Under the pieces are notes generated by a model that made no database searches, was not told the origin of the DNA, and saw only the letters and a program-made list of their open reading frames with translations. The translations under genes and the position numbers were made by a program. From Flavobacteriia bacterium (GTDB taxonomy: Bacteria > Bacteroidota > Bacteroidia > Flavobacteriales_D > Crocinitomicaceae), in assembly GCA_947462925.1 (NCBI GenBank), contig CANHQP010000010.1:13664-77663 (forward strand): a stretch of 64,000 nucleotides of DNA, written 5' to 3'. Below are positions 25,527 through 50,478 of the stretch, in pieces. Position 1 is the stretch's first letter; each line of letters begins with the position of its first letter.

Positions 25527-26048
25527 ATGAAAGTAATTTCAAAGGAAAAGTGGTATGTACTTCAAACTCGTTCGAGATTTGAGAAAAAGTCATTTGAATT
25601 ATTATCACTTCAAGGTGTTTCTGTTTTTTTACCAACACAGAAAGTGAAAAAAAATTGGAGCGATAGAATCAAAGAAATTGAAACCCCTTTATTTCCTGGT
25701 TATCTATTTATCCAATTTGAAGAAAAGGATAGATATAGAGTTTTAAATACAAGCGGAATTGTTCGTTTTGTTTCATTTGGAGGAAAATATGCCACTTTGG
25801 ATGAAAATCAAATCGAAATTTTTAGACAATTCGAAAGATTGGATACGGACATTCAAGTTATTGACCTTGAATTCTATATCGGTCAAGAAGTATTCATATC
25901 TTCTGGTCCATTTAAAGGACTTGAAGCCAAAATAGTTCAGTACAATGGGAAAGGAAAACTCTTACTTACAGTAGAAAGTATTGGAAAAGGAGTTTTGTTA
26001 GAAATTGGAAAAACAAAAATAGAAAATAAGAGTAATTTTTTAATTTAA
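25527..26048 (+). CDS. UpxY-family (NusG-like) transcription antiterminator heading the polysaccharide locus
   Basis: NGN domain start WYVLQTRSRFEKK, then PLFPGYLFI and a KOW motif (GQEVFISSGPFKGLEAKIV). It is the first gene of a long same-strand polysaccharide cluster. Confidence 0.85.
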   Translation: MKVISKEKWYVLQTRSRFEKKSFELLSLQGVSVFLPTQKVKKNWSDRIKEIETPLFPGYLFIQFEEKDRYRVLNTSGIVRFVSFGGKYATLDENQIEIFRQFERLDTDIQVIDLEFYIGQEVFISSGPFKGLEAKIVQYNGKGKLLLTVESIGKGVLLEIGKTKIENKSNFLI

Positions 26049-26170
26049 AATAAAAAACAAGATTCTTTTAATTGCTTCTAGCTCTTTTGATTGTAAAAAA
26101 AATCATGTGAGTGAAAGGGCGAAGCTGTGTTAAATTGTTTGTAATTTAACAGAAATGATTAAATTTGGGG

Positions 26171-27172
26171 ATGGAAAAAAAATCTAAAATTCTTATAACA
26201 GGTGGAGCTGGATTCATAGGTTCAAATCTATGTGAGTATTTTGTTAATAATGGATATAGCGTTGTATGTTTAGATAATTTTGCAACGGGTTATAGACACA
26301 ATTTAAATTCAGTTATTGATGCTCCAAATTTTGAACTGATAGAAGGTGACATTAGAAATTTGGAAACATGCAGACTAGCTGTTAAAGACTGTGAATACGT
26401 TCTGCATCAAGCTGCCCTAGGCTCGGTTCCTAGATCGATAAATGATCCAATAACCACCAATGAAGTAAATATAAATGGTTTCTTAAATATGTTGGTTGCA
26501 AGTAGAGATGAAAACGTAAAAAGGTTCATTTATGCTGCAAGTTCTTCTACATATGGAGATTCTCAATCACTTCCAAAAGTAGAAGATATAATAGGTAAAC
26601 CGCAATCACCTTATGCTATCACTAAGTATGTAAACGAATTGTACGCTCAAAATTTTTCAAAATTATACCAAATGGAAACAATTGGTTTGAGATATTTTAA
26701 TGTATTTGGAAGACGACAAGATCCAAATGGTGCTTACGCTGCAGTTATACCAAAGTTTGTGATTCAACTAATTAATCATGAAAGTCCTGTAATCAATGGA
26801 AATATCGAATATTCTAGAGATTTCACGCACATAGATAATGTAATCGCAATGAATGAATTAGCGATTCAAACTAAAAATTCAGAAGCTCTCAATACGGTAT
26901 TTAATACTGCTTTTGGAGAAAGAACAACATTACTTGAGCTGGTGAATCTATTGAAAAGTGAACTTTCACAATTTGATTCTAAAATAAGCTCCATTGAAAC
27001 TATTATTGGTCCTAGTCGTATGGGAGATATTCCTCATTCAATTGCAAGCATTGATAAAGCTAAATTGTTACTTGGTTATATCCCCAAAACAAGTCTGAAA
27101 ATAGGAATTAGTAAAACAATACAATGGTATTGGGAAAATTTAAATCAAAAAATAGATAAAATTGTTTCCTAA
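26171..27172 (+). CDS. SDR-family UDP-N-acetylhexosamine(uronate) C4-epimerase (WbpP/TviC-like)
   Basis: Rossmann motif GGAGFIGSN and catalytic YAITKY. LRYFNVFGRRQDP and GDIPHS blocks are typical of the WbpP/TviC/CapD group. First ATG is 26171. Confidence 0.75.
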   Translation: MEKKSKILITGGAGFIGSNLCEYFVNNGYSVVCLDNFATGYRHNLNSVIDAPNFELIEGDIRNLETCRLAVKDCEYVLHQAALGSVPRSINDPITTNEVNINGFLNMLVASRDENVKRFIYAASSSTYGDSQSLPKVEDIIGKPQSPYAITKYVNELYAQNFSKLYQMETIGLRYFNVFGRRQDPNGAYAAVIPKFVIQLINHESPVINGNIEYSRDFTHIDNVIAMNELAIQTKNSEALNTVFNTAFGERTTLLELVNLLKSELSQFDSKISSIETIIGPSRMGDIPHSIASIDKAKLLLGYIPKTSLKIGISKTIQWYWENLNQKIDKIVS

Positions 27173-28817
27173 AATTAATCCAACATCAACAAAAGCTTGG
27201 TCGCTTTTAAAAAATCATCAAACTGATGAAATGTCTTCGACCTACATGAAAGATTTGTTTTCGAATGATATTTCTAGGTTTAATAAATTTCATGTTCAAC
27301 AAGAATCATTTTTATTTGATTTCTCTAAAAACATTATCAACGAAAGAACGATTGAGTTGTTATTAGAACTAGCTGAGGAATGTAAGTTGAAGGATGCAAT
27401 TTCCGCCATGTTTGACGGATCCAAAATCAATGAAACAGAAAATCGTGCTGTTTTTCATGTTGGCTTACGAGATTTTTCAGATAACAAATTTATTATTGAT
27501 GGAACTGAAGTAAAATCAGAAATAAATTCTGTTAGAAATAAAATCAAACATTTTTCAAATGATGTTCACGATGGAAAATGGTTAGGTTGCACTGGTGAGC
27601 GAATCAAAAATATCGTAAATATTGGTATCGGAGGAAGTGATTTAGGACCAAACATGGTCTGCGAAGCTTTGAAACCTTATTGGAAAAAGGAAATCAACAG
27701 CTTTTTTATTAGTAATGTAGATGGAACTAATTTGGTAGAGGTTCTCAAAGAACTGAATGCTGAAGAGACTTTATTTGTAGTTGCTTCTAAAACTTTTACC
27801 ACTCAGGAAACGATGACCAATGCAAATTCTGCTAGAGAATGGTTTCTATCCAAAATGGAGAATCCTGATTTTGTGGCCAAACATTTTGTTGCAATTAGTT
27901 CAAACGTGTCCAAAGCCATTGAATTTGGCATCAATGAAAATAACATTTTCGAAATGTGGGATTGGGTTTGCGGACGATTCAGTGTTTATGGAGCTATAGG
28001 ATTGACTGTTTCTCTTACAATTGGTTATGAAAACTTTGAACAATTTCTAAAAGGCGCAGAATCTGCAGATTTCCATTTCAAAAATAATAAATTCGAATCA
28101 AATATTCCCGTAATAATGGGCTTGTTAAGTATTTGGTACATCAATTTTTGGAACGCTAAAAGCGAAGTTATCCTCTGTTATGACCAATACTTACATAAGT
28201 TTGCTACATACATGCAACAAGGTTTTATGGAAAGCAATGGGAAATCTGTCGATCGAAATGGACAACAAGTTTCTTATTCAACAGGCATTCCAATTTGGGG
28301 TGAACCAGGAACGAATGGTCAACATAGTTTTCACCAAATGTTCCACCAAGGTACTTCGATGATTCCATGCGATTTTGTAGCACCGCTTAAAAGCCATAAT
28401 CCAATTGGAGATCATCACACGAAACTGTTGTCGAACTTTTTTGCTCAAAGTGAAGCTTTAATGGTGGGAAAAACGAAGGAAGTGGTAGTTGAAGAGTTAG
28501 TTCAAAAAGGATTTAATCAAAGTGAAATTGAAAAACTGGCTCCTTTCAAAATATTTGAAGGAAATAAACCAACTAATTCAATTTTAATTGATATCATTGA
28601 CCCTTTTAATTTAGGGAAATTGACAGTTTTTTACGAACATAAGATATTTGTACAAGGAATTATCTGGAATATTTTTAGCTTTGACCAATGGGGAGTAGAA
28701 TTAGGTAAAGAATTATCTACTTATATTTTACCCGAATTAAATAATGTTGATGAAACGAAAAACTTTAGTTCATCTACAAATGGATTAATAAATTACTTTA
28801 AACAAAATACGATTTAA
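27162..28817 (+). CDS. pgi: Glucose-6-phosphate isomerase
   Basis: 551 aa. The conserved N-terminus INPTSTKAWSLL forces the TTG start at 27162, giving an 11-nt overlap with the epimerase gene. Also GIGGSDLGP, FTTQET and GQHSFHQ blocks. Confidence 0.9.
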   Translation: MFPKINPTSTKAWSLLKNHQTDEMSSTYMKDLFSNDISRFNKFHVQQESFLFDFSKNIINERTIELLLELAEECKLKDAISAMFDGSKINETENRAVFHVGLRDFSDNKFIIDGTEVKSEINSVRNKIKHFSNDVHDGKWLGCTGERIKNIVNIGIGGSDLGPNMVCEALKPYWKKEINSFFISNVDGTNLVEVLKELNAEETLFVVASKTFTTQETMTNANSAREWFLSKMENPDFVAKHFVAISSNVSKAIEFGINENNIFEMWDWVCGRFSVYGAIGLTVSLTIGYENFEQFLKGAESADFHFKNNKFESNIPVIMGLLSIWYINFWNAKSEVILCYDQYLHKFATYMQQGFMESNGKSVDRNGQQVSYSTGIPIWGEPGTNGQHSFHQMFHQGTSMIPCDFVAPLKSHNPIGDHHTKLLSNFFAQSEALMVGKTKEVVVEELVQKGFNQSEIEKLAPFKIFEGNKPTNSILIDIIDPFNLGKLTVFYEHKIFVQGIIWNIFSFDQWGVELGKELSTYILPELNNVDETKNFSSSTNGLINYFKQNTI

Positions 28818-28818
28818 G

Positions 28819-30099
28819 ATGATGAATGATAAGATTGCAATTGTAGGACTGGGTTATGTTGGATTGCCATTAGCAAGGCTTTTAGCTACTAAATATCCAG
28901 TAATTGGTTTCGACATAAATCAAGGAAGAATTGCTGAACTAAATTCAGGACACGACGCAACTTTAGAAGTTGAAGATGATATTTTAAAAGCTGTTTTAAC
29001 AGGAACTCCCAAAATGGACAAAGGACTTTTTTGTAGTTCTAATTTGGAGGACATCAAGGATTCAAACTATTTTATTGTAACAGTCCCAACTCCTGTGGAT
29101 AAACACAATAAGCCAGATTTAACACCTCTATATAGAGCAAGTGAAACAGTTGGAAAAGTTTTGAAAAAAGGCGATATTGTCATCTATGAATCTACTGTTT
29201 ACCCAGGTGTAACGGAAGAAGAATGTGTTCCCGTTTTGGAAAAAGTAAGTGGATTAAAATTCAATGTTGATTTCTTCGCAGGATATTCTCCAGAAAGAAT
29301 CAATCCAGGTGATAAAGAACATACTGTTGAGAAGATATTAAAAGTTACCTCAGGTTCAACACCTGAAATTGGGCAGAAAGTAGATGCACTTTACAAAAGC
29401 GTTATCATTGCTGGAACTCACCTTGCTCCCACCATTAGAGTAGCCGAAGCAGCAAAAGTGATTGAAAACTCTCAAAGAGACATCAATATTGCATTTGTAA
29501 ATGAATTAGCTAAAATTTTCAATTTATTAGATATCAATACACACGATGTTTTGGCTGCTGCCGGAACAAAATGGAATTTCCTTCCTTTCAAGCCAGGATT
29601 AGTTGGTGGTCACTGCATTGGTGTTGACCCGTATTATCTAGCACAAAAAGCGCAAGAAAAAGGATACAATCCGGAAATCATTTTAGCAGGAAGAAGAATG
29701 AATGACGGAATGGGAGAATATGTTGCTTCTCAGGTTGTTAAATTGATGATTAAAAAAGGTATTTCTATCTTGGGTGCAGAGCTTTTAATGCTAGGAATTA
29801 CATTTAAAGAAAATTGCCCAGATGTTAGAAATACAAAAATTGTAGATGTAATAAATGCTCTTGTATCGTACGGAATTACTGTAAAAACATATGATCCCTG
29901 GGCTAATCCGGATGAGGTTAGGCATGAATATGGATTAGACACAACTACGGATATTCCAAATCAAAAATTTGATGCAGTTGTATTAGGAGTTTCTCATAAC
30001 GAATTTTTAAATCTCAATTTTGAAAATTTAGTAAACGAAATAAATGTCATTTATGATGTAAAAGGAATACTTAACATCCAAGTAGACGGAGTTTTATAA
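28819..30099 (+). CDS. UDP-N-acetylhexosamine 6-dehydrogenase (TviB/WbpO/Cap5O-like nucleotide-sugar dehydrogenase)
   Basis: NAD fold IAIVGLGYVGLPLA and catalytic-Cys block GLVGGHCIGVDPYY. 426 aa. Confidence 0.8.
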   Translation: MMNDKIAIVGLGYVGLPLARLLATKYPVIGFDINQGRIAELNSGHDATLEVEDDILKAVLTGTPKMDKGLFCSSNLEDIKDSNYFIVTVPTPVDKHNKPDLTPLYRASETVGKVLKKGDIVIYESTVYPGVTEEECVPVLEKVSGLKFNVDFFAGYSPERINPGDKEHTVEKILKVTSGSTPEIGQKVDALYKSVIIAGTHLAPTIRVAEAAKVIENSQRDINIAFVNELAKIFNLLDINTHDVLAAAGTKWNFLPFKPGLVGGHCIGVDPYYLAQKAQEKGYNPEIILAGRRMNDGMGEYVASQVVKLMIKKGISILGAELLMLGITFKENCPDVRNTKIVDVINALVSYGITVKTYDPWANPDEVRHEYGLDTTTDIPNQKFDAVVLGVSHNEFLNLNFENLVNEINVIYDVKGILNIQVDGVL

Positions 30100-30121
30100 T
30101 CAATCTTAAATTAATAATACA

Positions 30122-30478
30122 ATGAATTTCCAATTTATTGAGTCTGATAACAGACCTTGGGGAAGATATTTTGTTCTTCACGATGAGCCAAATTACAAGG
30201 TAAAAAGAATTGAAGTTGAGCCAAATCAAAGATTAAGTTATCAATACCATTTCAAAAGAGCTGAGGCATGGACTATCGTTCAAGGTGAAGCTACAGTAAC
30301 TCTTGATGGTGTAGATAAAATTTTTACAGTTGGAGAAACAGCAATTATCCCTCTAAGTGCTAAGCATAGGGTTGCAAATATGGGTACAGAACTGTTGATT
30401 TTTATTGAAGTTCAAACAGGTGATTATTTTGGTGAAGATGACATCGTTAGAATCGAGGATGATTACTCGAGAAAATAA
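30122..30478 (+). CDS. Stand-alone cupin resembling the C-terminal domain of type II phosphomannose isomerase
   Basis: 118 aa with RPWGRY, SYQYHFKRAEAWTIVQGEA and AKHRVAN blocks. Confidence 0.65.
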   Translation: MNFQFIESDNRPWGRYFVLHDEPNYKVKRIEVEPNQRLSYQYHFKRAEAWTIVQGEATVTLDGVDKIFTVGETAIIPLSAKHRVANMGTELLIFIEVQTGDYFGEDDIVRIEDDYSRK

Positions 30479-30501
30479 AATTCAAAAAACATACTTTACT
30501 G

Positions 30502-30930
30502 ATGAAACAATTTTCTAGAAAAAGACATATTGCTAAGACTTTCACTTGGAGAGCAGTTGGGACCATGGATACAATTCTGTTATCTTGGTTAGTATCTGGA
30601 GACTTGAAAATTGGAGCTGCAATTGGTGGTGCTGAAGTTTTTTCAAAGTTGCTTTTGTATTACCTTCATGAAAGGTTATGGTATAAAACAAATATTTTAA
30701 AATCAGTTTCTAGTAAATTAAGACACGCAATCAAAACGGTTTCCTGGAGAATTGTCGGTACATTAGATACGATGATGATGGGATGGATTGTATCCGGTAA
30801 TCCAATGACCGGTCTAAAAATTGGCGGATTAGAATTAGTAACAAAAATGGGGCTTTACTATCTTCATGAAAGGGTTTGGTATAGAAGTGATTACGGACTA
30901 ATTATTGAAACAAAAAATCAAAAAGAATAA
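30502..30930 (+). CDS. DUF2061-type small membrane protein (internally duplicated)
   Basis: Two ~60-aa repeats, each matching R-H-x-x-K-T-x-(T/S)-W-R-x-V-G-T-x-D-T ... YYLHER(L/V)WY(K/R). Each repeat has two hydrophobic segments. Confidence 0.65.
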   Translation: MKQFSRKRHIAKTFTWRAVGTMDTILLSWLVSGDLKIGAAIGGAEVFSKLLLYYLHERLWYKTNILKSVSSKLRHAIKTVSWRIVGTLDTMMMGWIVSGNPMTGLKIGGLELVTKMGLYYLHERVWYRSDYGLIIETKNQKE

Positions 30931-30945
30931 TAAATTGATTTCAAA

Positions 30946-31566
30946 ATGAAAATCGAAAATGATAATCCTAACAATGTTTACAATCAAAATTATTCGATTA
31001 GTAAGCTTAATAGGAATAAAAAAAACAATCATTCATCCTTGATGATTTTGTTTACAGGTTTATCCGGTTCAGGAAAATCTACAATAGCCAGTAAATTAGA
31101 ACAACATCTTCATTCACAAAATTTGCAGACTTACACCCTCGATGGCGACAATATGCGATTGGGTTTGAATAGCGACTTAGGATTTTCGCCAGAAGACCGA
31201 AATGAAAACCTAAGACGAATTGGTGAAGTGTCTAAACTGATGGTAGATGCAGGTTTGATTACACTCGCAGCATTTGTTTCACCATTAAAATCCGATCGGA
31301 AATTAATTGAAACAATTGTTGGTTCCGACAATTTCATAGAAATTTTCGTAAATACCTCATTAGAAGAGTGTGAACGGAGAGATGTTAAAGGACTGTATGC
31401 GAAAGCGAGAAAAGGTGAAATTCCAAACTTTACCGGTATTAGTTCACCTTATGAGGCACCTGAAAATCCTAGTTTAGAAATAAATACAGAAAATACTTCT
31501 GTCGAAAATGCGGTTGAAATTATTACCGAATATCTTAAAAATAAAATATCTTTGCACCATGAATAA
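30946..31566 (+). CDS. cysC: Adenylyl-sulfate (APS) kinase
   Basis: P-loop FTGLSGSGKSTIA, plus LDGDNMRLGLN and the FVSP motif. Confidence 0.9.
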   Translation: MKIENDNPNNVYNQNYSISKLNRNKKNNHSSLMILFTGLSGSGKSTIASKLEQHLHSQNLQTYTLDGDNMRLGLNSDLGFSPEDRNENLRRIGEVSKLMVDAGLITLAAFVSPLKSDRKLIETIVGSDNFIEIFVNTSLEECERRDVKGLYAKARKGEIPNFTGISSPYEAPENPSLEINTENTSVENAVEIITEYLKNKISLHHE

Positions 31567-32464
31567 ATATTATTTGAATTACTTAGACGAATTAGAGTCA
31601 GAAGCAATCTTCGTTCTAAGAGAAGTTGCAGCACAATTTGAAAATCCTGTAATTTTATTTTCAGGAGGAAAAGATTCAATTGTAGTTACATATTTAGCTC
31701 AAAAAGCTTTCTACCCTGCGAAAATGCCGTTCGCTTTGTTGCATGTTGACACGGGACATAACTTTCCCGAAACGATAGAATTTAGAGACAAATTGGTTAA
31801 TTCATTAGGTGTTCAACTATTGGTAGGTTCTGTGCAAGATTCTATTGATGATGGAAGAGTTGCTGAGGAAAAAGGCAAAAATGCATCTAGAAATGTATTG
31901 CAAATTACCACTTTGCTAGATACTGTTGAAAAATACAAAATCGATTGTGCGATTGGTGGCGGAAGAAGAGACGAAGAAAAAGCAAGAGCAAAAGAACGTT
32001 TTTTCTCACACAGAGATGAATTTGGACAATGGGATCCAAAAAATCAAAGACCTGAATTGTGGAATCTATTTAATGGAAAACAATTCAAAGGTGAACACTT
32101 TAGAGCATTCCCTATTTCAAACTGGACAGAAATGGATGTTTGGAATTACATCAATCGTGAGCAATTAGCTATACCTTCTTTATATTTTGCGCACGAAAGA
32201 GAAGTAATTTGGAGAGATGATGCTTGGATTCCACTTTCAGAACACATCAAGCTTGATGCAAATGAAATAGTTTCTACTAAAAGAATCAGATTTAGAACTT
32301 TAGGTGATATTACAATTACAGGAGGTATCGAATCTGACGCAGATACATTAGAAAAAATTGTTGATGAAGTTAGTACAATGAGATTAACTGAAAGAGGAAA
32401 TAGATCTGATGATAAAAGATCTGAAAGCGCTATGGAAGATAGAAAACGCGAAGGATATTTTTAA
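31559..32464 (+). CDS. cysD: Sulfate adenylyltransferase subunit 2
   Basis: PP-loop FSGGKDS and blocks LHVDTGHNFPE, GGRRDEEKARAKERFFS, MRLTERG. ATG 31559 overlaps the cysC stop by 8 nt. Confidence 0.9.
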   Translation: MNKYYLNYLDELESEAIFVLREVAAQFENPVILFSGGKDSIVVTYLAQKAFYPAKMPFALLHVDTGHNFPETIEFRDKLVNSLGVQLLVGSVQDSIDDGRVAEEKGKNASRNVLQITTLLDTVEKYKIDCAIGGGRRDEEKARAKERFFSHRDEFGQWDPKNQRPELWNLFNGKQFKGEHFRAFPISNWTEMDVWNYINREQLAIPSLYFAHEREVIWRDDAWIPLSEHIKLDANEIVSTKRIRFRTLGDITITGGIESDADTLEKIVDEVSTMRLTERGNRSDDKRSESAMEDRKREGYF

Positions 32465-32492
32465 TTAATCAAATCATTGAAATAAAAAAATT

Positions 32493-33749: not shown

Positions 33750-33773
33750 TAAATAAACAAATTATTTGAAAAA

Positions 33774-35985: not shown

Positions 35986-35986
35986 A

Positions 35987-40131: not shown

Positions 40132-40294
40132 ACAACATTGCTCTTCTATCGGATTGTTTCACAAAAGTAGAAAACTAAAAAAACTCCAATCAGCAACAGA
40201 AGATAAATTAAAAAATTAAAAGTTTTTGAGTTTGAAAAATATTAAAATAACAATAAATTGAAATTTTAATAGTGTTGTTAAATTTAAATAAAAA

Positions 40295-41500: not shown

Positions 41501-42374
41501 ACCGAATCTCTTCATTGTCGGCGCACCAAAATCAGGAACTACCTTTTTGTATAACAAATTGCAAATATTTAGTGAATTTTATTTTACTGAAATAAAAGAA
41601 TTAAACTATTTTTCATATGATGAAATAGCAGAATCAAAATCTTACTACAATGATTACAAAGTAAAAGAAATAGAACGGTACTTAAATTTCTTTAAAAATG
41701 CTGATAAACAAAAATATAAAGTAGATACAAGTGTTTCCTATTTTTCATATCCTAGGACAGCAAATAGAATTTTTGAATTCAATCCTGAATCGAAAATTAT
41801 TGCTATATTGAGAAATCCTATTAAAAGGGCATTTTCGCACTACCAAATGGATGTTAGAATGGGGCATGCAAAACACTCTTTCAAAAATTATATTGAAGAC
41901 AAAAATGAACATCAAGCTCATTACCATCAATATATTACAAACAGTTTATATCATAGTAATATTTCTAGATATATCGAAAAATTTGGAACCAAAAACGTTT
42001 TAGTACTAATATTAGAAGAAATAGAAGTGGAATTGCCAAAGTTGTTTGATTTTTTGAATATCGAAAATAGCTCATCTGAAATTGACACAGGAGATAAAAT
42101 TAATGTTAATAAGAAACCTAAAAATTTTATTTCGAAATTTTTTCAAAATAATCGCAGATTAGCAGAGAAATTGAAAAAATATACTCCAGAATATTTGGTC
42201 AATTTTTACAAAAAATATTTTTATGAAAATGCAGAAATAATTACAATAACTGATGAAGAATATGAAATTTGCAGAAAACTACTTTCTAAAGAAGTAGATG
42301 AATTATCCACCTTATTAAACAAAAATTTATCGAACTTATGGCTGATGAATTTACCTCAAAAAAACAAAAATTAA
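41481..42374 (+). CDS. PAPS-dependent sulfotransferase (canonical motifs)
   Basis: 5'-PSB loop LFIVGAPKSGTTFLYNKL and 3'-PB motif AILRNPIKRAFSHYQM. 20-nt overlap with wzy. No signal peptide. Confidence 0.8.
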   Translation: MSQLQIKPNLFIVGAPKSGTTFLYNKLQIFSEFYFTEIKELNYFSYDEIAESKSYYNDYKVKEIERYLNFFKNADKQKYKVDTSVSYFSYPRTANRIFEFNPESKIIAILRNPIKRAFSHYQMDVRMGHAKHSFKNYIEDKNEHQAHYHQYITNSLYHSNISRYIEKFGTKNVLVLILEEIEVELPKLFDFLNIENSSSEIDTGDKINVNKKPKNFISKFFQNNRRLAEKLKKYTPEYLVNFYKKYFYENAEIITITDEEYEICRKLLSKEVDELSTLLNKNLSNLWLMNLPQKNKN

Positions 42375-43492
42375 TGCCAATAAAACATTTAAAAATAGCT
42401 TTGATAGATCCTGTTGGGGGGAAAGGTGGAATGGATTTTTACGACTATGGGCTCGCACAAGGTCTTGCTAGTAACAACTGTGAAGTATTTTATTTCACTT
42501 GCAATCAAACCCGTGAAATAAAAAACAATAATATAAATACAATATTTTTCTTTGGGGAAATTTGGAATAAAAAAAAGTTTTTTAAGTTAATCTTACTATT
42601 AAATGGTTATAAAAAAGCTTTCAAATATTGTAAAAAAAATAAAATAGAAATTATTCATTTTCAATTTTTTAGTTTAAAAATACCAAATCTAATCGCTCTC
42701 CTAATGTGTAAGTTTTTTGGTTTAAAAAGAATAGTAACACTTCACGACATTGACTCATTTAGAGGGAAAGAAAGATTATTTCTCCAAAAAAAAGCATTTT
42801 CATTGACTCAGAAATTAATCGTTCATAATCAGTTTTCTTTAAATGAAATTACCAAAAAAGGAATTTCAAAACAGAAGGTAGCGATAATTCCCCACGGAAA
42901 CTATATTCCTTTCGTTGAAAAAGTAACAGCTAATGAACCTTCAAGAATATTAAATTTGTTATTTTTTGGACAAATCAAAGAAGTAAAAGGATTAGAAATT
43001 CTACTCAACGCCTTTGCAAAAGCTTACAAAGAAAATGGAAACATCAGATTGACAATTGCAGGAAAACCATGGGGAACAAGTTCTGAAAAATATTCAAAAA
43101 TGATTTCTAACTTGAAAATAGAAAAAGTAGTTCATACCAATTTTAGTTATATTCCAAATGATGAAATTCATTTATATTTTCAAAAAAGTGATGTGGTAGT
43201 TTTGCCATATAAAAAGATTTACCAAAGTGGTGTGTTGTTACTTTCAATGAGCTACGGGCGCGTATGTTTGTGTTCAGATTTAGATGCTTTTAAAGAAATT
43301 GTAGTAGATAATGAAACAGGTTATATTTTCGAAAATAAAAATGTAGACTCACTCTCAAAAAAAATTCTCGAAATTTATAAAGACAAAAGTGATATAACTA
43401 GAATTGAAAATAACGCACAAGAATTACTAAAGAAAAATTTTGGATGGAACAACATAGCTATAATGTCAATAGAACTTTATCAAACAGTATAA
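42374..43492 (+). CDS. GT4-family (GT-B, Glycos_transf_1) glycosyltransferase
   Basis: The C-terminal half has the typical LLFFGQIKEVKGLE ... VVVLPY ... ETGYIF (EX7E region). ATG 42374 gives a TAATG overlap with the preceding stop. Confidence 0.75.
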   Translation: MPIKHLKIALIDPVGGKGGMDFYDYGLAQGLASNNCEVFYFTCNQTREIKNNNINTIFFFGEIWNKKKFFKLILLLNGYKKAFKYCKKNKIEIIHFQFFSLKIPNLIALLMCKFFGLKRIVTLHDIDSFRGKERLFLQKKAFSLTQKLIVHNQFSLNEITKKGISKQKVAIIPHGNYIPFVEKVTANEPSRILNLLFFGQIKEVKGLEILLNAFAKAYKENGNIRLTIAGKPWGTSSEKYSKMISNLKIEKVVHTNFSYIPNDEIHLYFQKSDVVVLPYKKIYQSGVLLLSMSYGRVCLCSDLDAFKEIVVDNETGYIFENKNVDSLSKKILEIYKDKSDITRIENNAQELLKKNFGWNNIAIMSIELYQTV

Positions 43493-43571: not shown

Positions 43572-44921
43572 ATGAAAAATAAAATCGCTATCATTTTGCT
43601 GGTATTTGTTGGATTATTTTCTTGTAATAATTTATCCGATAGCATACAGCTAAGTGCTTCAAATGTCTCTAACGAAAAAAATAAAATAAATTTTGAAATT
43701 ACTGATAGTACAAGATTTTTCATCGCAAATGAACTAACAAAGATATCTTATACAGGGAATTATCCAACTTCATTTCCTATAATCGCAATTTTTTTAGAAG
43801 AATCGGTTAGGAAACAAAATGAAGGGTCAAAATCAGAAACAGAATTAAAGATAATTAAAGATGTTTTAATAAAGGGCCGCCCTAAAAGTTACTTTAAAAT
43901 AGATATTGGAGAAAAAATAACCACAATTTCAGCTGCAGAAGACGAAGGCTTGCACAATGGCATAAATTATTTCAGAAAATTAATTTTAGAAAAATCAGGA
44001 AAAATACCTTTGATGAAATATGAAGATTTCTCTGCAATTGAAAACCGGACACTTCATTTAGTAATGAGAAACGATTCAATAGAAAAATTTTATTCTTACA
44101 TAGATTCAGCAAGATATTATAATTACAATAAAATTATACTAGAAATTTCAAATCAAATTGATCTTCAGTTTTTTAATAGAATTGAAGTAACGAAAAAAAA
44201 ATTAAATAGAAAAGATTTTTTGAAGTTTATTGATTATACAATAAAATCAGGATTTGATATTATTCCTGAAATTAAACTACTAACAAAACAAAAAAAAACA
44301 TTTTCAAATAAGTATCCAGAATTGCTATTTAACGATCAAACCTACGACCCGAGAAACAGTAAAGTTTATGAAAAAATTTTCCAGCTAATAGATGAAGTAA
44401 TTACTTTAATACCATGTAATTCAATTCACATTGGGCATGATGAGGTATATGGATTCGGAGAAAAAGAAGCTGAAAAAAAAATCAAGATTTTGCCCGCTAG
44501 TTTATTTGCAGAAGATGTTAATATATTGTTTCAATATCTAAAAAGCAAAAATAAAAAAACGCTGATTTGGGGAGATATGATTTGGAGCAGGAAAGAGTTT
44601 CCAAATGAGAGAGGTAATAAATTAAGTCTGGAAAATTATGAAAACGTTGTAAATTTAATCCCAAGGGAAATAATAATTTGTGATTGGCATTACAAATCAA
44701 AATTCTCTGAATTTCCAACTTTTAAAAAATTTGATGATTTGGGATTTGAAGTATGGGGAGCAACTTGGGATGACTTGTTAGTTATGTCCAATTTCACTGC
44801 ATACGCCAAGAAACAAAAATTAAAAAAAGAATTTGGAATGATAGCTACCACTTGGAATAGAGACATTAAAACAGTATATGAAATCATCAGAAAATCAGGA
44901 AAAAAATTCTGGAATGAATAA
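43572..44921 (+). CDS. Lipoprotein with a GH20-like (beta-N-acetylhexosaminidase-type) catalytic domain
   Basis: Lipobox LLVFVGLFSC. TIM-barrel-like blocks are in GH20 order: RTLHLVM, YNKIILEI, IIPEIKLL, NSIHIGHDEV (Asp-Glu pair), LIWGDM, CDWHY. Confidence 0.5.
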   Translation: MKNKIAIILLVFVGLFSCNNLSDSIQLSASNVSNEKNKINFEITDSTRFFIANELTKISYTGNYPTSFPIIAIFLEESVRKQNEGSKSETELKIIKDVLIKGRPKSYFKIDIGEKITTISAAEDEGLHNGINYFRKLILEKSGKIPLMKYEDFSAIENRTLHLVMRNDSIEKFYSYIDSARYYNYNKIILEISNQIDLQFFNRIEVTKKKLNRKDFLKFIDYTIKSGFDIIPEIKLLTKQKKTFSNKYPELLFNDQTYDPRNSKVYEKIFQLIDEVITLIPCNSIHIGHDEVYGFGEKEAEKKIKILPASLFAEDVNILFQYLKSKNKKTLIWGDMIWSRKEFPNERGNKLSLENYENVVNLIPREIIICDWHYKSKFSEFPTFKKFDDLGFEVWGATWDDLLVMSNFTAYAKKQKLKKEFGMIATTWNRDIKTVYEIIRKSGKKFWNE

Positions 44922-45993
44922 GTCAGTTGCAATTATAGGATCTGTCGGAATACCCGCAAAATATGGTGGTTTTGAGACATTAGCAGAATATTTAACGAAG
45001 AATTTATCAGATAAGGTAGATTTTACTGTTTATTGCTCAGCAAAAGCATATCCTAAAAAATTAAAAGAGTACAATCATAGCAAACTAGAATATATTCCGT
45101 TGAAAGCAAACGGTATACAGAGTATTCCCTACGACATTATTTCCCTGCTTAAGGTCAAGAGAAAAACAAAAACGGTTCTTATTTTAGGAGTTGCTTGTGG
45201 TATAATTTTGCCTTTATATCGATTGTTTTATTCAAAAAAGCTCATTGTAAATATAGATGGTCTTGAATGGAAGCGAGAAAAGTGGGGAAAAGTAGCAAAA
45301 TGGTACTTGAAGTTTTCAGAAAAAGTTGCTGTTAAATCAGCAGATGTAGTTATTGCAGACAATAAAGTTATCCAGGATTATGTTCAAAATGAATATGGAA
45401 AAAATGCTGTATTAATAGAATATGGAGCTGATCATTCGATATCATTACCACTTTCCGATGAAATCAAAAAAGAATTTTCTTTTACCAATTTTGAGTATGC
45501 ATTTAAAGTTTGTAGAATTGAGCCCGAAAATAATATTAAAATGATTTTGGAGGCATTTTCAAAGCAAACAAAATATCATTTAGTTATTGTAGGGAATTGG
45601 GAAAACAGTGAATATGGAATAGACTTATTTTCAAAATTTAGTAAGTTTGAAAATATTCATCTTTGTGATCCGATATATGATTTATTGATATTGAACCAAT
45701 TAAGAAGTAATGCTTTTCTATATATTCATGGACACAGTGCCGGTGGTACCAATCCTTCGCTTGTCGAGGCTATGTACTTATCTATACCTATCATATCTTT
45801 TGATATAAACTACAATAGAGAAACAACAGAAAATAAAGCATATAGCTATTTTAAAAATTCAACAGAATTAGTAGAAACTTTGAAAAATATTGATAAAACA
45901 AATCTAATAACTTCAAAAAATGCGCTATTTATAGTTGCTGAAAGAAGATATCAGTGGGAAAATATAACAGATAAGTATTTAAAAAAATTTTAA
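44914..45993 (+). CDS. DUF1972-type GT4 glycosyltransferase (RgpA/WchF-like, probable rhamnosyltransferase)
   Basis: N-terminus KSVAIIGSVGIPAKYGGFETLAEYL is the DUF1972 signature. C-terminus HGHSAGGTNPSLVEAM is the GT-B donor site. Overlaps the preceding gene by 8 nt. Confidence 0.7.
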   Translation: MNKSVAIIGSVGIPAKYGGFETLAEYLTKNLSDKVDFTVYCSAKAYPKKLKEYNHSKLEYIPLKANGIQSIPYDIISLLKVKRKTKTVLILGVACGIILPLYRLFYSKKLIVNIDGLEWKREKWGKVAKWYLKFSEKVAVKSADVVIADNKVIQDYVQNEYGKNAVLIEYGADHSISLPLSDEIKKEFSFTNFEYAFKVCRIEPENNIKMILEAFSKQTKYHLVIVGNWENSEYGIDLFSKFSKFENIHLCDPIYDLLILNQLRSNAFLYIHGHSAGGTNPSLVEAMYLSIPIISFDINYNRETTENKAYSYFKNSTELVETLKNIDKTNLITSKNALFIVAERRYQWENITDKYLKKF

Positions 45994-46107: not shown

Positions 46108-47232
46108 ATGAAGCCATCAATATTTGAGATGATAATTGTTTTAATGTCCTCATTTTTGGTCAGCTATATGCTTTATCCAAAAATAATAAGTGTTGTGTCA
46201 TTCAAAAAATTAATGGATAAGCCCAATGATAGGAGCTCACATTCAACAGCAACTCCTAGTTTGGGCGGTATCGCTTTTTATATCGTTCTCATTCTATCTT
46301 TTTATTTTCTTGAACCTTTTGATAAATACAATACAATTCCCTCTTTGATTCCAGGGTTGACAATTCTATTTATAATTGGATTAAAGGATGATTTAGTTGT
46401 GATCTCACCACTGACCAAACTTGGTGCTGAAATAGTCGCAGCAACTTTTTTAGTATTACATCCAAGTTTTGAGATTGAAAGTCTTCATGGATTTTTTGGT
46501 TTGTACGAAGTAAGTAAATTTATTACAGTTCCATTAAGTGTTTTCATTGTTATAGTAATTATCAATTCTTTTAACTTGATAGATGGAATCGACGGTCTTG
46601 CAGCTACAATTGGCACAGTAATATTTGGAACTTTTGGTGCTATATTTTACATGAGCCATTCCTATCTCCTATTGGGAGTTTGTATTGTAATGATAGGTTG
46701 TTTAACCGCATTTTTAAGATTCAATATTTCGCACTCAAAGAAAATATTTATGGGGGACACAGGTTCTCTAATTGTTGGATTTATAATCGGAATGTTAGTA
46801 TTAAGATTCTTAGCATTAACAGATGATAAAATTGCTTTATTACCATTCAAAACAGACAATTATCCATACATTGTGCTTGCAATACTAATTGTTCCATTTT
46901 TTGACACAGCGCGGGTTTTTACAATTCGAATAATGAATAAACGAGGTCCATTTTCGCCAGACCGTAATCACATTCATCACTTACTCATTGATTTCCTTCA
47001 TCTTTCACACATTAAAGCAAGTATTTTTTTAGGGGTATTTAATTTGATATTTGTTTCTATATTTTTATCAATCTCAATATTTTTTAGTCAAAATATAATG
47101 TTTGCTATTAGCGTAATTGCTGTTTTACTTTTAATTTATTTTTTCTTTTTGATAAATAAAAATACAAATGCAATAAAAGCGAAATCAAAAATAAAGAAGC
47201 AATTCAAAAAAAAACTGAGTAGTTATTTATAA
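46108..47232 (+). CDS. Polyprenyl-phosphate N-acetylhexosamine-1-phosphate transferase (WecA/MraY family initiating enzyme)
   Basis: ~10 TM helices. PNPT motifs GLKDD, NSFNLIDGIDGLA and MGDTGS. Confidence 0.8.
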   Translation: MKPSIFEMIIVLMSSFLVSYMLYPKIISVVSFKKLMDKPNDRSSHSTATPSLGGIAFYIVLILSFYFLEPFDKYNTIPSLIPGLTILFIIGLKDDLVVISPLTKLGAEIVAATFLVLHPSFEIESLHGFFGLYEVSKFITVPLSVFIVIVIINSFNLIDGIDGLAATIGTVIFGTFGAIFYMSHSYLLLGVCIVMIGCLTAFLRFNISHSKKIFMGDTGSLIVGFIIGMLVLRFLALTDDKIALLPFKTDNYPYIVLAILIVPFFDTARVFTIRIMNKRGPFSPDRNHIHHLLIDFLHLSHIKASIFLGVFNLIFVSIFLSISIFFSQNIMFAISVIAVLLLIYFFFLINKNTNAIKAKSKIKKQFKKKLSSYL

Positions 47233-47287: not shown

Positions 47288-47311
47288 CCATTTTTAAAAC
47301 AAGTCATCTAC

Positions 47312-48094
47312 ATGAAGTACATATATTTATTTTTGCTTGCCTTATCAGTATTTTCTTGCGGTATAAAAAAGAAAATCATTTACTTCAATGGTGCTAATTA
47401 TCAAAATGATACAATTAACAAAAGTCAACTTTCAAATCTACCAAAGTACACGCTCATTTTCAAGAAAGATGATTTGGTATATATTGATATAAATTCAGCT
47501 GACATAGAATCATTGAAACCATTCATGAAAGAAGATATGTCTGCGGGTAATCAAATGCCAGGATACGTAAATGGTATTTCAGCTAAAGGTGGTTATTTAA
47601 TTGATGAAAATGGAAAAATTAATTTTCCTTTGATAGGAGAAATTCAATTGGTCGGTCTCACAAGAACTGAAGCGACAAACTTGATTCAGAATAAATTAAG
47701 AGAGTTCATCAATGATGCAATTGTAACACTTAGAATTCAAAATTTCAAAATTACAATTTTGGGAGATGTTAAAATCCCAGGAACTTATAATATTCCTAAT
47801 GAAAGATTAACACTAATTGAAGCAATTGGTCTTGCAGGTGACCTTAATATTACTGGCGTTAGAAATAATGTTCTTGTAATTAGAGAAGAAAATGGAATTA
47901 AAAAGGAGTACCGTGTAGATCTAACTAAAAATGATATTTTTACTTCACCAGTTTACTACCTAAATCAAAATGACGTAGTATACGTTGAGCCAAATAGGGC
48001 GAAAAGAAATACATCCATTGTTAGTTCTACAGCTGGCATTTTTATTTCTGTAGCCTCGCTTGTTATTACTACAATTAATGTTATTATTAAATAA
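47312..48094 (+). CDS. wza: Wza-type outer-membrane polysaccharide export protein
   Basis: Lipoprotein signal LALSVFSCG. Poly_export motif (INFPLIGEIQLVGLTRTEA), SLBB domain and a C-terminal hydrophobic helix. The ORF-track TTG at 47285 was replaced by ATG 47312. Confidence 0.8.
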   Translation: MKYIYLFLLALSVFSCGIKKKIIYFNGANYQNDTINKSQLSNLPKYTLIFKKDDLVYIDINSADIESLKPFMKEDMSAGNQMPGYVNGISAKGGYLIDENGKINFPLIGEIQLVGLTRTEATNLIQNKLREFINDAIVTLRIQNFKITILGDVKIPGTYNIPNERLTLIEAIGLAGDLNITGVRNNVLVIREENGIKKEYRVDLTKNDIFTSPVYYLNQNDVVYVEPNRAKRNTSIVSSTAGIFISVASLVITTINVIIK

Positions 48095-48096
48095 GA

Positions 48097-50478
48097 ATGA
48101 ATCAAATCCAAAATAATTCTTTCCTTGACGAGGTGCAGGAAAAAGATTTTAAAATTAAAGAGCAATTAAGTATCTATTTACATCAATGGAGATGGTTTTT
48201 AATTTCTATTATTATTTCGATAACTTTTGGCTTCCTATATTTAAAATACACTTTACCGAAATATGACGTAAAAGCAGCTATTTTAATTAAAGATGAAGAT
48301 AAAAATGCTCCAATTTCCGAATTATCAGCATTTGCCGACTTAGGTATTTTAGGTGGGAAGAGTAATCTTGAAAATGAAATCGAAATTTTTAAATCTAGAA
48401 CTTTAATTTTAAATGTTGTAAAAGACCTAAGTTTAAATATAAGCTATTTAGATAACAATGGAATTATACCTTTTGGGATATTCAGTAATACGCCAATAAG
48501 AATCAATTTTATAAAAGGCGACTCAATTGTTTACGAACAGGAAGCAATTTTTAATATTCACATTTTATCAAATCAGAAATTTGAATTAACTGAAGAAGAA
48601 TCTAACTTTAAAGGTACTTTTAGTTTTGGTAAAGTAATTAAACATCCAATCGGTGACTTTATCATAACTCCGAAAACTGTTGATAACGATTTTTTAGATA
48701 GCAAAAAATATATCATTAAAATCAAACCAATAGATGATGTAGTTTCTTACTTTAAAAAAGAAATAAAAGTTGAAGCGGCTAATGATGAATCTAATGTAAT
48801 CACTATTTCACTTCAGGATTTTGATAGGATTAAATCAAAAGCAATCATAAACAACTTAATTGAACAACATAATAAAGATGCCATCAGTGATAAAAATCAA
48901 ATATCCAAAAATACGGCTGATTTTATAAATGAAAGAATAAAATACATCACCACAGAACTGTCAGATGTAGAACAAAATGTAGAAAGTTATAAAGCAGATC
49001 ACAAGCTTGTTGATATGGCTTCTGAAGCTGAAATATTTCTTAAAACCGGAAGCGATAATCATACTCTTATTTTGCAAAACGAGACTCAAATTCGTTTAGT
49101 TGAATTTGTATATGATTATTTACTGAATCATATTGAAACAAATGATCTAGTTCCTTCCAATCTCGGTCTCTATGATGTCTCAATAGAAAAGATGATAGAG
49201 TCATACAATAAATTGGTTTTAGAAAAAAATCGATTGACTAAAAATTCATCAGAAAAGCACCCAATTATTCAAAATTTAAATGTTCAGATTTTAGGAATTC
49301 ATAAAAACCTGAAAGAAAGTTTATTAAACCTGAAAGAATCTTTAAAAATTAAAAATAGAGAATTACAAAGATTAGAAAATGAAATAAATTCTAAAATATC
49401 CTCTGTCCCAAAGTATGAAAGAGAATATCGCGAAATTCAAAGACAACAGCAAATCAAAGAATCTTTGTACTTGTATTTGCTTCAAAAAAGAGAAGAAACA
49501 GCCATTACACTTGCTGTAACAGTATCAAATACAAAAATTATTGACGAAGCCTTTTCTGACAATCTTATTGTTTCTCCGAATAAAAAAATTATTTATGCAA
49601 TTTCATTCTTATTGGGTATTTTGATTCCATTTGGAATTATATATATTAAAAGACTTCTTGATACTAAAATACATGGAAAAAATGATATAATCGGAGCAAA
49701 TCTTCCTTACATAGGAGACATTCCACTTTCTGAAACTAAAGATAAAATTGTTGTCGCGCATGGTGAAAGCAACGATGTTTCAGAAGCATTTAGAATACTC
49801 AGAACAAACGCAGATTTTATATTAAAATCAAATTCAAATGTTTCCAAGAGTAAGGTGATATTTGTTACTTCTACTATTGAAAAAGAGGGTAAATCTTTCA
49901 TTTCAATTAACCTTGCTTCCATTATCGCTTTATCTGGAAAAAAAGTATTACTAATTGGAATGGACTTACGAGCGCCAAAAATCCTTGAATATACTGGTGT
50001 TGCAAAAACTAAAGGAGTTACTAATTTTATTACCGATTTAGATTTAACCCTACAAGATGTTATTATTGAAAAACCTGATGATATTAACTTTGATTTATTA
50101 GTTTCTGGAGATATTCCACCAAATCCATCAGAATTATTGATAAATCCTAGGGTGAGTGAGATGTTTATTCAAGTTAGAGAAATGTATGATTACATCATTG
50201 TAGATACCGCGCCGGTGGCACCAGTAACTGATACATTATTAATTAGCAAAATTGCAAACATGACCATCTATGTTTCAAGAGCCAATTATTTAGATAAACG
50301 TCTTTTAAATATTCCTCAAACATTGTATAGAGAAAATAAACTTTCTAATATGGTTGTATTGGTGAATGGATCCACTCAGCAAAAAGGATATGGTTATGGA
50401 TACGGCTATGGTATTGGATACGGCTACGGAAACGAAAAAGCTAAAATACCTTGGTACAAAAGGATTTTTAAAAAATAA
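48097..50478 (+). CDS. wzc: Wzc-type polysaccharide co-polymerase / tyrosine autokinase
   Basis: Wzz-like periplasmic domain between two TM helices. Walker A TSTIEKEGKS, A' LLIGMDLR, B IIVDTAP. C-terminal tyrosine cluster GYGYGYGYGIGYGYG. Confidence 0.9.
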   Translation: MNQIQNNSFLDEVQEKDFKIKEQLSIYLHQWRWFLISIIISITFGFLYLKYTLPKYDVKAAILIKDEDKNAPISELSAFADLGILGGKSNLENEIEIFKSRTLILNVVKDLSLNISYLDNNGIIPFGIFSNTPIRINFIKGDSIVYEQEAIFNIHILSNQKFELTEEESNFKGTFSFGKVIKHPIGDFIITPKTVDNDFLDSKKYIIKIKPIDDVVSYFKKEIKVEAANDESNVITISLQDFDRIKSKAIINNLIEQHNKDAISDKNQISKNTADFINERIKYITTELSDVEQNVESYKADHKLVDMASEAEIFLKTGSDNHTLILQNETQIRLVEFVYDYLLNHIETNDLVPSNLGLYDVSIEKMIESYNKLVLEKNRLTKNSSEKHPIIQNLNVQILGIHKNLKESLLNLKESLKIKNRELQRLENEINSKISSVPKYEREYREIQRQQQIKESLYLYLLQKREETAITLAVTVSNTKIIDEAFSDNLIVSPNKKIIYAISFLLGILIPFGIIYIKRLLDTKIHGKNDIIGANLPYIGDIPLSETKDKIVVAHGESNDVSEAFRILRTNADFILKSNSNVSKSKVIFVTSTIEKEGKSFISINLASIIALSGKKVLLIGMDLRAPKILEYTGVAKTKGVTNFITDLDLTLQDVIIEKPDDINFDLLVSGDIPPNPSELLINPRVSEMFIQVREMYDYIIVDTAPVAPVTDTLLISKIANMTIYVSRANYLDKRLLNIPQTLYRENKLSNMVVLVNGSTQQKGYGYGYGYGIGYGYGNEKAKIPWYKRIFKK
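50386..50430 (+). repeat. Imperfect hexanucleotide (GGN-TAY)n repeat encoding the Wzc tyrosine cluster
   Basis: ggatatggttatggatacggctatggtattggatacggctacgga encodes GYGYGYGYGIGYGYG. Confidence 0.9.

Follow-up and report, generated by a model that had tools for sequence, protein, structure and literature searches.

What does a flavobacterium do with a set of sulfate-activating genes that sits inside a capsule operon? The question is raised by a locus of about 25 kb on a metagenome contig (CANHQP010000010.1) from an uncultured, marine-type member of Crocinitomicaceae, a family of Flavobacteriales. The same DNA is found in the 124-kb ENA metagenome contig k141_698911 (ERZ27263776). The locus occupies positions 25527-50478 of the 64-kb stretch of DNA analyzed here (the window), in which 24 consecutive, tightly packed plus-strand open reading frames (ORFs) bring together genes for the synthesis of 3′-phosphoadenosine 5′-phosphosulfate (PAPS), three sulfotransferase-like (ST-like) genes, and the machinery of Wzx/Wzy-type polysaccharide assembly. 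We consider it likely that the product of the locus is a sulfated capsule or exopolysaccharide, assembled and exported by a Wzx/Wzy-type route, a prediction carried by two STs with intact active sites and by the repeated linkage of PAPS genes to polysaccharide genes in other Bacteroidota. Gene identities were assigned with Pfam, with NCBIfam and its curated cut-offs, and by sequence search against the PDB; along with active-site motifs, operon structure, a conserved/variable split, and recurrent synteny, they are what the analysis establishes.

Sulfate activation and sulfotransferase genes

The genes that bear on sulfation are the following.

30502..30930, plus strand: DUF2061 protein (Pfam DUF2061), conserved partner of cysC
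30946..31566, plus strand: CysC, adenosine 5′-phosphosulfate (APS) kinase (TIGR00455, 240 bits; cut-off 139)
31559..32464, plus strand: CysD, sulfate adenylyltransferase small subunit (NF009214, 423 bits; cut-off 413); start as in the gene call for locus L001
32493..33749, plus strand: CysN, sulfate adenylyltransferase GTPase subunit (NF003478, 593 bits; cut-off 590)
33774..34568, plus strand: CysQ, 3′(2′),5′-bisphosphate nucleotidase, which removes 3′-phosphoadenosine 5′-phosphate (PAP) (TIGR01331, 271 bits; cut-off 229)
38130..38900, plus strand: third ST-like ORF, a divergent Sulfotransfer_2-family protein of 256 aa (no Pfam match itself; linked through its family profile)
39220..40131, plus strand: sulfotransferase A (ST-A), heparan-sulfate 3-O-sulfotransferase-like, soluble (Sulfotransfer_1, 35.4 bits; cut-off 22)
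41481..42374, plus strand: sulfotransferase B (ST-B), soluble (Sulfotransfer_1, 43.4 bits, and Sulfotransfer_3, 44.2 bits; cut-offs 22 and 27)

The original prediction, made from the sequence without database searches, had named all four Cys proteins, and each scores above its curated cut-off. It had also named three ST-like ORFs, of which ST-A and ST-B pass the Pfam gathering scores with full active-site motifs, while the third is tied to sulfotransferases through its family only. The outcome that would have refuted that prediction, no significant sulfotransferase HMM score for any ST-like ORF, did not occur. Against the PDB, ST-A matches heparan-sulfate 3-O-sulfotransferases (3-OSTs) 5 and 1 (3bd9 at 8e-11), and ST-B matches the bacterial sulfotransferase 3rnl at 6e-24 as well as a 3-OST and the sulfotransferase domain of the N-deacetylase/N-sulfotransferase (NDST) NDST1. 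Alignment to solved enzymes places the Lys of the 5′-phosphosulfate loop, PKxGT(T/S), at K19 in ST-A and K17 in ST-B. The catalytic Glu (E42 in ST-A, E40 in ST-B) falls on the Glu of a KE(V/I)HFF or KE(L/V)(H/N)(F/Y)F motif, and the RxPxxRxxS 3′-phosphate motif supplies R106/S114 and R111/S119, respectively. The catalytic roles of these loop Lys, Glu, and Arg/Ser positions are established for 3-OST and NDST enzymes. Neither ST-A nor ST-B has a signal peptide or a transmembrane or other hydrophobic segment, which argues for action in the cytoplasm, the site of PAPS synthesis.

The third ORF has no Pfam, NCBIfam, or PDB sequence match by itself. A first search returned 25 relatives, three of which match Sulfotransfer_2, and the only search to link the protein to that family was a large one with a family profile. 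Run against 1.84 billion representatives, the profile recovered 5702 proteins at E <= 1e-3, of which 219 reach E <= 1e-30; 60 of the 81 strong matches sampled (E <= 1e-41) match PF03567 Sulfotransfer_2, the best at 3.4e-13. Conservation in the family is strong at R63 (82/82), S/T71 (80/82), H39 (80/82), and K38 (70/82), and the PAPS-loop position is Arg in 33, His in 21, Phe in 7, and Gln in 7 of the 82, never Lys. A confident AlphaFold2 (AF2) model (predicted local distance difference test, pLDDT, of 88) has the expected strand-loop-helix at residues 9-29 and strand-helix at 57-78. Membership in Sulfotransfer_1/3 was also considered and was rejected because hhalign against the ST-A/ST-B family gave a 37-column match at 51% probability. 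Members of the family adjoin wzx and canonical STs in the five contexts examined (the window, L002, L084, and L085/L086, where L numbers denote individual loci). We read the set as two sound STs and one divergent family member of uncertain catalytic competence.

In 24 of 29 Flavobacteriales-type cysCDNQ loci, the gene directly upstream of cysC is that for DUF2061; examples outside the window include L002 6715-7152, L060 10777-11202, and L070 10854-11273. Its product consists of two 52-aa repeats with many invariant residues, in the pattern W-R...G-T-x-D-T...Y-L-H-E-R-x-W, and the AF2 model is a four-helix bundle (pLDDT 84) with no significant fold match in the PDB. No strongly hydrophobic segment is present, despite the Pfam label of "membrane protein," and no report of a function was found in the literature. 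This protein could be an unrecognized component of sulfate activation or uptake. DUF2061 (30502), a cupin (30122), and a GH20-like lipoprotein (43572-44921) are genes that the first description of the locus did not include.

Linkage across Bacteroidota

With CysQ as the anchor, a scan that covered one genome per GTDB species gave at least 596 relatives. The best 80 were examined with 10-kb flanks, ST-like ORFs being detected with an iterated hidden Markov model. Within this best 80, the full cysCDNQ set is present in 49 loci, and 26 of these 49 have at least one ST-like ORF within 10 kb. Where CysD is of the Flavobacteriales type (n = 29), polysaccharide or ST genes are nearby in 22 loci and STs in 11. 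The order rfbB-rfbA-rfbC-rfbD-cysQ-DUF2061-cysC-cysD-cysN-wzx-ST-transferases occurs in Pontimicrobium, Algicola, Formosa, Winogradskyella, and Aequorivita, and Algoriphagus halophytocola (Cytophagales) has a similar set with a gene of the third ORF's family (the ORF256 family) between two STs. Gene order differs between lineages while the PAPS genes repeatedly adjoin, and stay linked to, rfb, wzx, ST, and glycosyltransferase genes. A tblastn search with Escherichia coli CysH, CysI, and CysJ found no homologue in the window or within 10 kb in 86 loci, with only cross-hits on CysD and with limited sensitivity. That the linkage of PAPS and capsule genes persists under rearrangement, with no linkage to these reductive genes, is our main argument that the PAPS module serves sulfation. 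Judged by gene content, the design recurs in many Bacteroidota genomes; it is neither a one-off nor unusual there.

A second arrangement was seen in gut Bacteroides/Parabacteroides-type loci (L037, L042, L057, L061, L063, L064, L073, L075, L079, and L080), in which a lone sulfotransferase of about 368 aa is encoded about 5 kb from cysCDNQ and no capsule genes were detected nearby. The arrangement resembles the cholesterol-sulfation cluster BT0411-0416 of Bacteroides thetaiotaomicron. That cluster is like the present locus in having a cysC/D/N/Q module near a PAPS-dependent ST (compare L037, L064, and L075) and differs in that its single, longer ST acts on sterols and no capsule assembly or export machinery is known around it.

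Closer relatives divide the locus in two. Nucleotide colinearity extends from 23787 to 36850 with L002 (82.7%) and from 20525 to 36850 with L082 (89.7%), which lies in the 3.9-Mb assembly GCA_965284445.1. Both alignments end at the rfbD/wzx junction (36850/36871), a sharp recombination boundary common to two independent relatives. GC content is 31-34% before this point, 26-29% over 36-50 kb, and 33-37% past the terminator, a fall of about 6 points at rfbD/wzx. The end of colinearity and the fall in GC together argue for two halves: precursor genes, the PAPS genes among them, that do not vary between strains, and assembly genes that can be exchanged. Other cassettes found beyond the same junction are wzx, ST, an ORF256-family gene, two unknowns, and ST in L002 and wzx, ST, wzy, and ST in L082 and L083. 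From these comparisons, strains appear to exchange the capsule type as a cassette and to keep the precursor genes constant. The conserved genes are shared at 88-99% amino-acid identity with GCA_965284445.1 and a 3.6-Mb JGI contig, and the nearest species-level genome is the metagenome-assembled genome (MAG) Crocinitomicaceae bacterium EUL_059 (CysQ 93% identical). In a far more distant organism, represented by a TARA Oceans contig, the PAPS genes are 59-69% and the cassette 44-58% identical, and the order is cysCDNQ-rfbBACD-wzx-ORF256 family-ST-ST-wzy-ST-ST-GT4-DUF1972-GH5-ST-deacetylase, with five STs.

A predicted sulfated polymer and its alternatives

What polymer would these sulfotransferases act on? 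The remaining precursor genes are these.

26165..27172, plus strand: TviC/WbpP-like NAD-dependent sugar-nucleotide 4-epimerase (TviC, 354 bits; equivalog cut-off 760; Pfam Epimerase)
27162..28817, plus strand: glucose-6-phosphate isomerase (PGI), TTG start (Pfam PGI, 705 bits)
28819..30099, plus strand: TviB/WbpO-like UDP-GlcNAc 6-dehydrogenase (NF011729, 533 bits; equivalog cut-off 592; TIGR03026, 388 bits)
30122..30478, plus strand: 118-aa cupin, mannose-6-phosphate isomerase C-terminal type (Pfam MannoseP_isomer, 117 bits; matches the C-terminal end of GMP_PMI)
34565..35440, plus strand: RfbA, glucose-1-phosphate thymidylyltransferase (TIGR01207, 495 bits; cut-off 361)
35437..35985, plus strand: RfbC, dTDP-4-dehydrorhamnose 3,5-epimerase (TIGR01221, 253 bits; cut-off 156)
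35987..36859, plus strand: RfbD, dTDP-4-dehydrorhamnose reductase, last gene of the conserved half (TIGR01214, 306 bits; cut-off 224)

The assembly and export half contains, besides the STs, the following.

36871..38133, plus strand: Wzx flippase, first gene of the low-GC variable half (Polysacc_synt, 51 bits; cut-off 28; 11 hydrophobic segments)
40295..41500, plus strand: probable Wzy polymerase (Wzy_C, 28.2 bits; cut-off 31.7; 8 hydrophobic segments)
42374..43492 (alternative start 42338), plus strand: GT4 glycosyltransferase (Pfam Glycos_transf_1, Glyco_transf_4)
43572..44921, plus strand: GH20-like lipoprotein (Pfam GH20, 26 bits; lipobox LFSC; HIGHDE catalytic motif, HxGxDE)
44878..45993, plus strand: DUF1972 glycosyltransferase, probable beta-1,4-rhamnosyltransferase (Pfam DUF1972, 111 bits; Cps2T, 222 bits; cut-off 500)
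46129..47232 (alternative start 46108), plus strand: WecA-like initiating N-acetylhexosamine (HexNAc)-1-phosphate transferase (Glycos_transf_4, 119 bits; TIGR02380, 134 bits, under its cut-off; 10 hydrophobic segments)
47312..48094 (alternative start 47285), plus strand: Wza-type outer-membrane polysaccharide export lipoprotein (Poly_export, SLBB; lipobox VFSC)
48097..50478, plus strand: Wzc-type co-polymerase/tyrosine kinase (Wzz, GNVR, AAA_31; Tyr-rich C-terminal GYGYGYGYGIGYGYG tail)

The original assignments hold for most of these genes and need qualification for a few. TviB and TviC are indeed the best-matching families of the dehydrogenase and epimerase, but both scores fall below the equivalog cut-offs (533/592 and 354/760). 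RfbA, RfbC, and RfbD all exceed their cut-offs, but they form an incomplete dTDP-rhamnose set in the absence of rfbB. In the proposed Wzy-dependent line, the WecA-like, GT4, and DUF1972 transferases, Wzx, Wza, and Wzc are confirmed, whereas the multi-spanning Wzy candidate scores under the Pfam threshold. For the GT4 enzyme, alignment to the L085 homologue starts at 42392.

From gene content, we infer which sugars are used and in what order, how many sulfates there are and where they sit, that sulfation is timed to the cytoplasmic stage, and what the GH20-like protein does. A composition of HexNAc, HexNAc-uronic acid, and rhamnose is plausible on these grounds. The TviB-like dehydrogenase and TviC/WbpP-like epimerase would yield a UDP-N-acetylhexosaminuronic acid; RfbA, RfbC, and RfbD would yield dTDP-L-rhamnose, with RfbB encoded elsewhere; and CysDN followed by CysC would make PAPS, with CysQ clearing the inhibitory product PAP. 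Synthesis would begin with transfer of HexNAc-phosphate to undecaprenyl phosphate by the WecA-like enzyme. The Cps2T/GacB-like DUF1972 transferase would then add rhamnose, as its characterized relative GacB does to lipid-linked GlcNAc (PMC6802508), and the GT4 enzyme would add a third sugar, most simply the N-acetylhexosaminuronic acid from the TviB/TviC-like pair. Three transferases would therefore build a trisaccharide repeat of HexNAc, rhamnose, and the third sugar. ST-A and ST-B, and perhaps the divergent third protein, would O-sulfate the lipid-linked repeat on the cytoplasmic side before Wzx flips it, Wzy polymerizes it, and Wzc and Wza export the product. Such a polymer might carry about one carboxylate and at least two sulfates per three sugars.

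A further predicted enzyme is the exported GH20-like lipoprotein. It matches 9fym at 1e-16 and 8bal at 8e-12 in the PDB. Among solved structures it comes closest to TrdeGH20 and Niako3494, both GH20 enzymes whose active site is open and which liberate disaccharides or may cleave in an endo fashion (PMC11776370). Two other ST-rich capsule loci (L088 8001-9347 and a contig of GCA_041443025.1) have a homologue in the equivalent place (GT-GH20L-DUF1972-WecA, where GT is glycosyltransferase), which argues that the gene belongs to the cassette. A GH5 cellulase-family gene is found at a comparable place in the TARA locus (L085 17538-18596). Together these placements suggest a dedicated polymer-processing hydrolase. 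Hydrolases or lyases occur in other exopolysaccharide operons, as with PslG, BcsZ, AlgL, and dispersin B, and by analogy the GH20-like lipoprotein probably trims or releases the polymer.

Several observations weigh against this prediction. No chemical evidence was found for sulfate on the polymer of this organism or of any flavobacterium with such a locus, and the best 80 of at least 596 CysQ matches do not give an unbiased estimate of prevalence. No sulfate transporter was found with Pfam in 25.5-50.5 kb, unlike the cluster of Cobetia marina considered below. The Wzy_C score of the Wzy candidate is subthreshold, as noted above; the protein is 50-52% identical to Wzy_C-matching genes in L082 and L085, and the L088 homologue matches Wzy_C too. 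For the third ST-like ORF, the family profile found nothing among PDB sequences, Foldseek with the model gave sulfotransferases as top but weak matches (E 0.09, TM score 0.33), and Phe16 stands where a basic residue (Lys/Arg) is expected in the 5′-phosphosulfate loop, with R63, S71, and H39 kept. No rfbB was found in the locus or in the whole window. The last two points, with the noncoding stretches at 38901-39219 (319 nt) and 40132-40294 (163 nt) inside the cassette, could mean that this strain has a decayed or incomplete locus from which no sulfated polymer is made. We think this the least probable reading of all, since the 24 reading frames are all intact and full length relative to homologues. 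In L002, L082, and L083, too, this position has no rfbB, which argues for a copy elsewhere in the genome rather than a recent loss, although Flavobacteriaceae relatives hold a true dTDP-glucose 4,6-dehydratase at the homologous position (L056 6671-7720; TIGR01181, 468 bits). Phe, Tyr, or Leu at the loop position is common to the nearest subfamily members of the third ORF, which retain R63, H39, and S71, and no trace of the extra ST genes of the TARA locus L085 was found in the 319-nt stretch.

A more substantial alternative is that cysDNC-cysQ is an ordinary sulfate activation set for cysteine and that the STs draw on a general PAPS pool rather than on a supply of their own. The cys block does sit in the strain-invariant half beside pgi, a gene of central metabolism, so that co-location alone is no proof of dedicated cys genes; 18 of the 29 Flavobacteriales-type loci have no ST within 10 kb, a flank limit that may hide some; and CysQ is needed also where PAPS reductase is used. 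Yet the absence of CysH, CysI, and CysJ homologues from the window and the surveyed loci, the translational coupling of the cys block to rfbA inside the UpxY operon, and the linkage to polysaccharide or ST genes in 22 of the 29 loci in several gene orders all speak for sulfation. In Lacinutrix, some strains have APS kinase, PAP phosphatase, and a putative ST, whereas others have PAPS reductase together with sulfite reductase but no APS kinase (PMC4755562). The cysteine and sulfation roles are not mutually exclusive, and as an explanation on its own we regard the cysteine role as unlikely. Less likely still is that the STs modify something else, such as lipids, small molecules, or protein glycans, and leave the polysaccharide itself unsulfated. 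The substrates of STs cannot be read from sequence, and the Bacteroides-type loci described above pair cysCDNQ with a single 368-aa ST away from detected capsule genes. In the present locus, however, the three ST-like genes are set among wzx, wzy, and the glycosyltransferase genes, with overlapping frames (38130 and 41481), they lie in the serotype-variable cassette and change along with the transferases between strains, and the closest solved relatives are carbohydrate (heparan sulfate) sulfotransferases. A sulfated polysaccharide remains the explanation that we prefer.

How does such a locus compare with known systems? Bacteroides UpxY capsule loci are long one-strand operons in which UpxY is paired with UpxZ, often with an invertible promoter. 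The present locus shares their NusG-like first gene, Wzx/Wzy chemistry, and strain-variable transferases; to our knowledge, neither PAPS genes nor sulfotransferases have been described in classical Bacteroides UpxY loci. TviB/TviC of the Vi antigen are the nearest match to the dehydrogenase/epimerase pair, if below equivalog level, and the Vi antigen differs in its synthase/ABC (ATP-binding cassette) route and in being acetylated rather than sulfated. The DUF1972 transferase is closest to the Cps2T beta-1,4-rhamnosyltransferase, again below cut-off, and like GacB it adjoins a GlcNAc-1-P transferase (PMC6802508). For sulfation itself, the chemically proven sulfated capsule of C. marina KMM 1449 comes from a cluster with cysN/C, cysD, cysQ, a sulfotransferase, and dTDP-rhamnose genes (PMC11766843). 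As here, PAPS is made and PAP removed beside the transferases inside the capsule cluster. Cobetia is, in contrast, a gammaproteobacterium with ABC-transporter export (kpsETMD/kpsSC); its cluster encodes CysN/C as a fusion, includes a sulfate permease, and lacks UpxY, the DUF2061 gene, and the GH20-like gene, all three of which are present here. Vibrio sp. KMM 8419, whose sulfated capsule is also chemically proven, has a second cysC/cysN/cysD copy, three STs, and a rhamnose operon, and its authors describe PAPS genes and STs in a cluster as a hallmark of sulfated polysaccharide synthesis (PMC11641403). That capsule belongs to another phylum, uses an ABC transporter and no Wzy, and is encoded by a dispersed region of 80 genes and 95 kb, whereas the present locus is a compact operon. 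The Synechocystis xss cluster is Wzx/Wzy-dependent, has two STs interleaved with glycosyltransferases, and is genetically tied to a rhamnose-containing sulfated exopolysaccharide, synechan (PMC8205485). It differs in having no PAPS-synthesis or cysQ genes, an outer-membrane polysaccharide export (OPX) gene elsewhere, and XssQ/R/S regulation, and in being plasmid-borne and cyanobacterial. The short list of known systems in the original prediction (NodH/LpsS, sulfolipids, and xss) is therefore incomplete in omitting Vibrio KMM 8419 and Cobetia KMM 1449, and its claim of rarity is overstated, as PAPS genes and STs in a capsule cluster are already published for both. No description of a sulfated capsule locus from Flavobacteriia was found in open-access full-text literature, an absence that is no proof, and a survey of Shark Bay that used a single Pfam query reported its Bacteroidetes MAGs to have no sulfotransferase (PMC9723792). 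In the present locus, in-cluster PAPS genes as in Cobetia and Vibrio come together with the Wzx/Wzy route of synechan, under UpxY and in another phylum.

The usual view of marine Bacteroidota is that they consume the sulfated glycans of algae and animals. A wider proposal is that they commonly coat themselves in densely sulfated, glycosaminoglycan-like capsules of their own, made from a modular locus with an invariant precursor block (the PAPS factory and DUF2061), an exchangeable cassette in which wzx, wzy, and glycosyltransferase genes accompany two to six STs, including a Sulfotransfer_2 subfamily without the loop Lys, and a dedicated GH20-like lipoprotein. We advance this tentatively, as a possibility that falls a little short of an even call. 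If it is true, flavobacteria would be an unrecognized marine source of sulfated polysaccharide and would hold a large untapped set of bacterial carbohydrate sulfotransferases, working examples of which are sought for heparin and chondroitin manufacture. Sulfated polysaccharides from bacteria continue to be described as rare; the 2021 synechan paper (PMC8205485) called them exclusive to cyanobacteria, and a 2024 review counts six genera. Should the polymer be sulfated, many Flavobacteriales and other Bacteroidota would share the trait, open-ocean (TARA) populations among them, which would bear on the cycling of carbon and sulfur in the sea, on how phages and grazers recognize capsule types, and on the abundance of sulfatases in these bacteria. 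The concept of PAPS genes and sulfotransferases inside a capsule cluster is not new. The main value of the locus is in a design that is common in Bacteroidota and points to testable strains and enzymes, the handles being culturable carriers such as Pontimicrobium sp. IMCC45349, Winogradskyella aurantia WNB302, Aequorivita soesokkakensis RSSK-12, and Algoriphagus halophytocola, soluble STs with intact active sites, and two unexplained conserved partners (DUF2061 and the GH20-like lipoprotein).

Operon boundaries and neighboring sequence

The locus is predicted to be a single UpxY-controlled operon, bounded by two features.

25527..26048, plus strand: UpxY-family NusG-like antiterminator, first gene (NF033644, 124 bits; cut-off 100; Pfam NusG, KOW)
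50488-50517, plus strand: intrinsic terminator, common to convergent recG (hairpin and U7, -16.6 kcal/mol, z = -5.1)

The ORF listing, the NF033644 match, and folding bear out the predicted run of 24 plus-strand ORFs between the UpxY gene and the terminator, and the listing contains no credible gene on the minus strand of 25527-50478. The terminator, missed by a simple terminator scan, has a stem of 9-10 bp followed by seven U, and none of 200 shuffles folds as well. At most junctions, the genes overlap or are separated by 1-28 nt, the largest internal gaps being 319, 163, 116, and 114 nt. Every coupled junction in the original description was found again in the sequence or in independent gene calls: ATGA at 34565 (cysQ/rfbA) and at 38130 (wzx/third ST-like ORF), GTGA at 35437 (rfbA/rfbC), TAATG at 42372-42376 (ST-B/GT4), and overlaps of 8 nt for cysC/cysD (31559-31566), 20 nt for wzy/ST-B (41481-41500), and 11 nt for the epimerase and pgi, the latter with a TTG start at 27162.

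UpxZ was not found, and the second gene of the locus is the epimerase. The UpxY leader, with 129 nt of upstream region, has only weak AT-rich inverted repeats and none convincing enough for an invertible promoter. UpxZ and an invertible promoter are typical of gut Bacteroides and are not universal. Nothing in the window, riboswitches included, matched Rfam. The 319-nt gap between the third ST-like gene and ST-A contains a 49-codon, strongly hydrophobic ORF (38909-39058) that is uncalled in the source assembly. Past the terminator, the minus strand at 54064-58950 encodes a PstS-type ABC transporter (PBP_like_2, two permeases, and an ATPase) preceded by an Alginate_exp-like outer-membrane protein. 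Together they probably take up phosphate through a porin of their own; the system is not a sulfate transporter.

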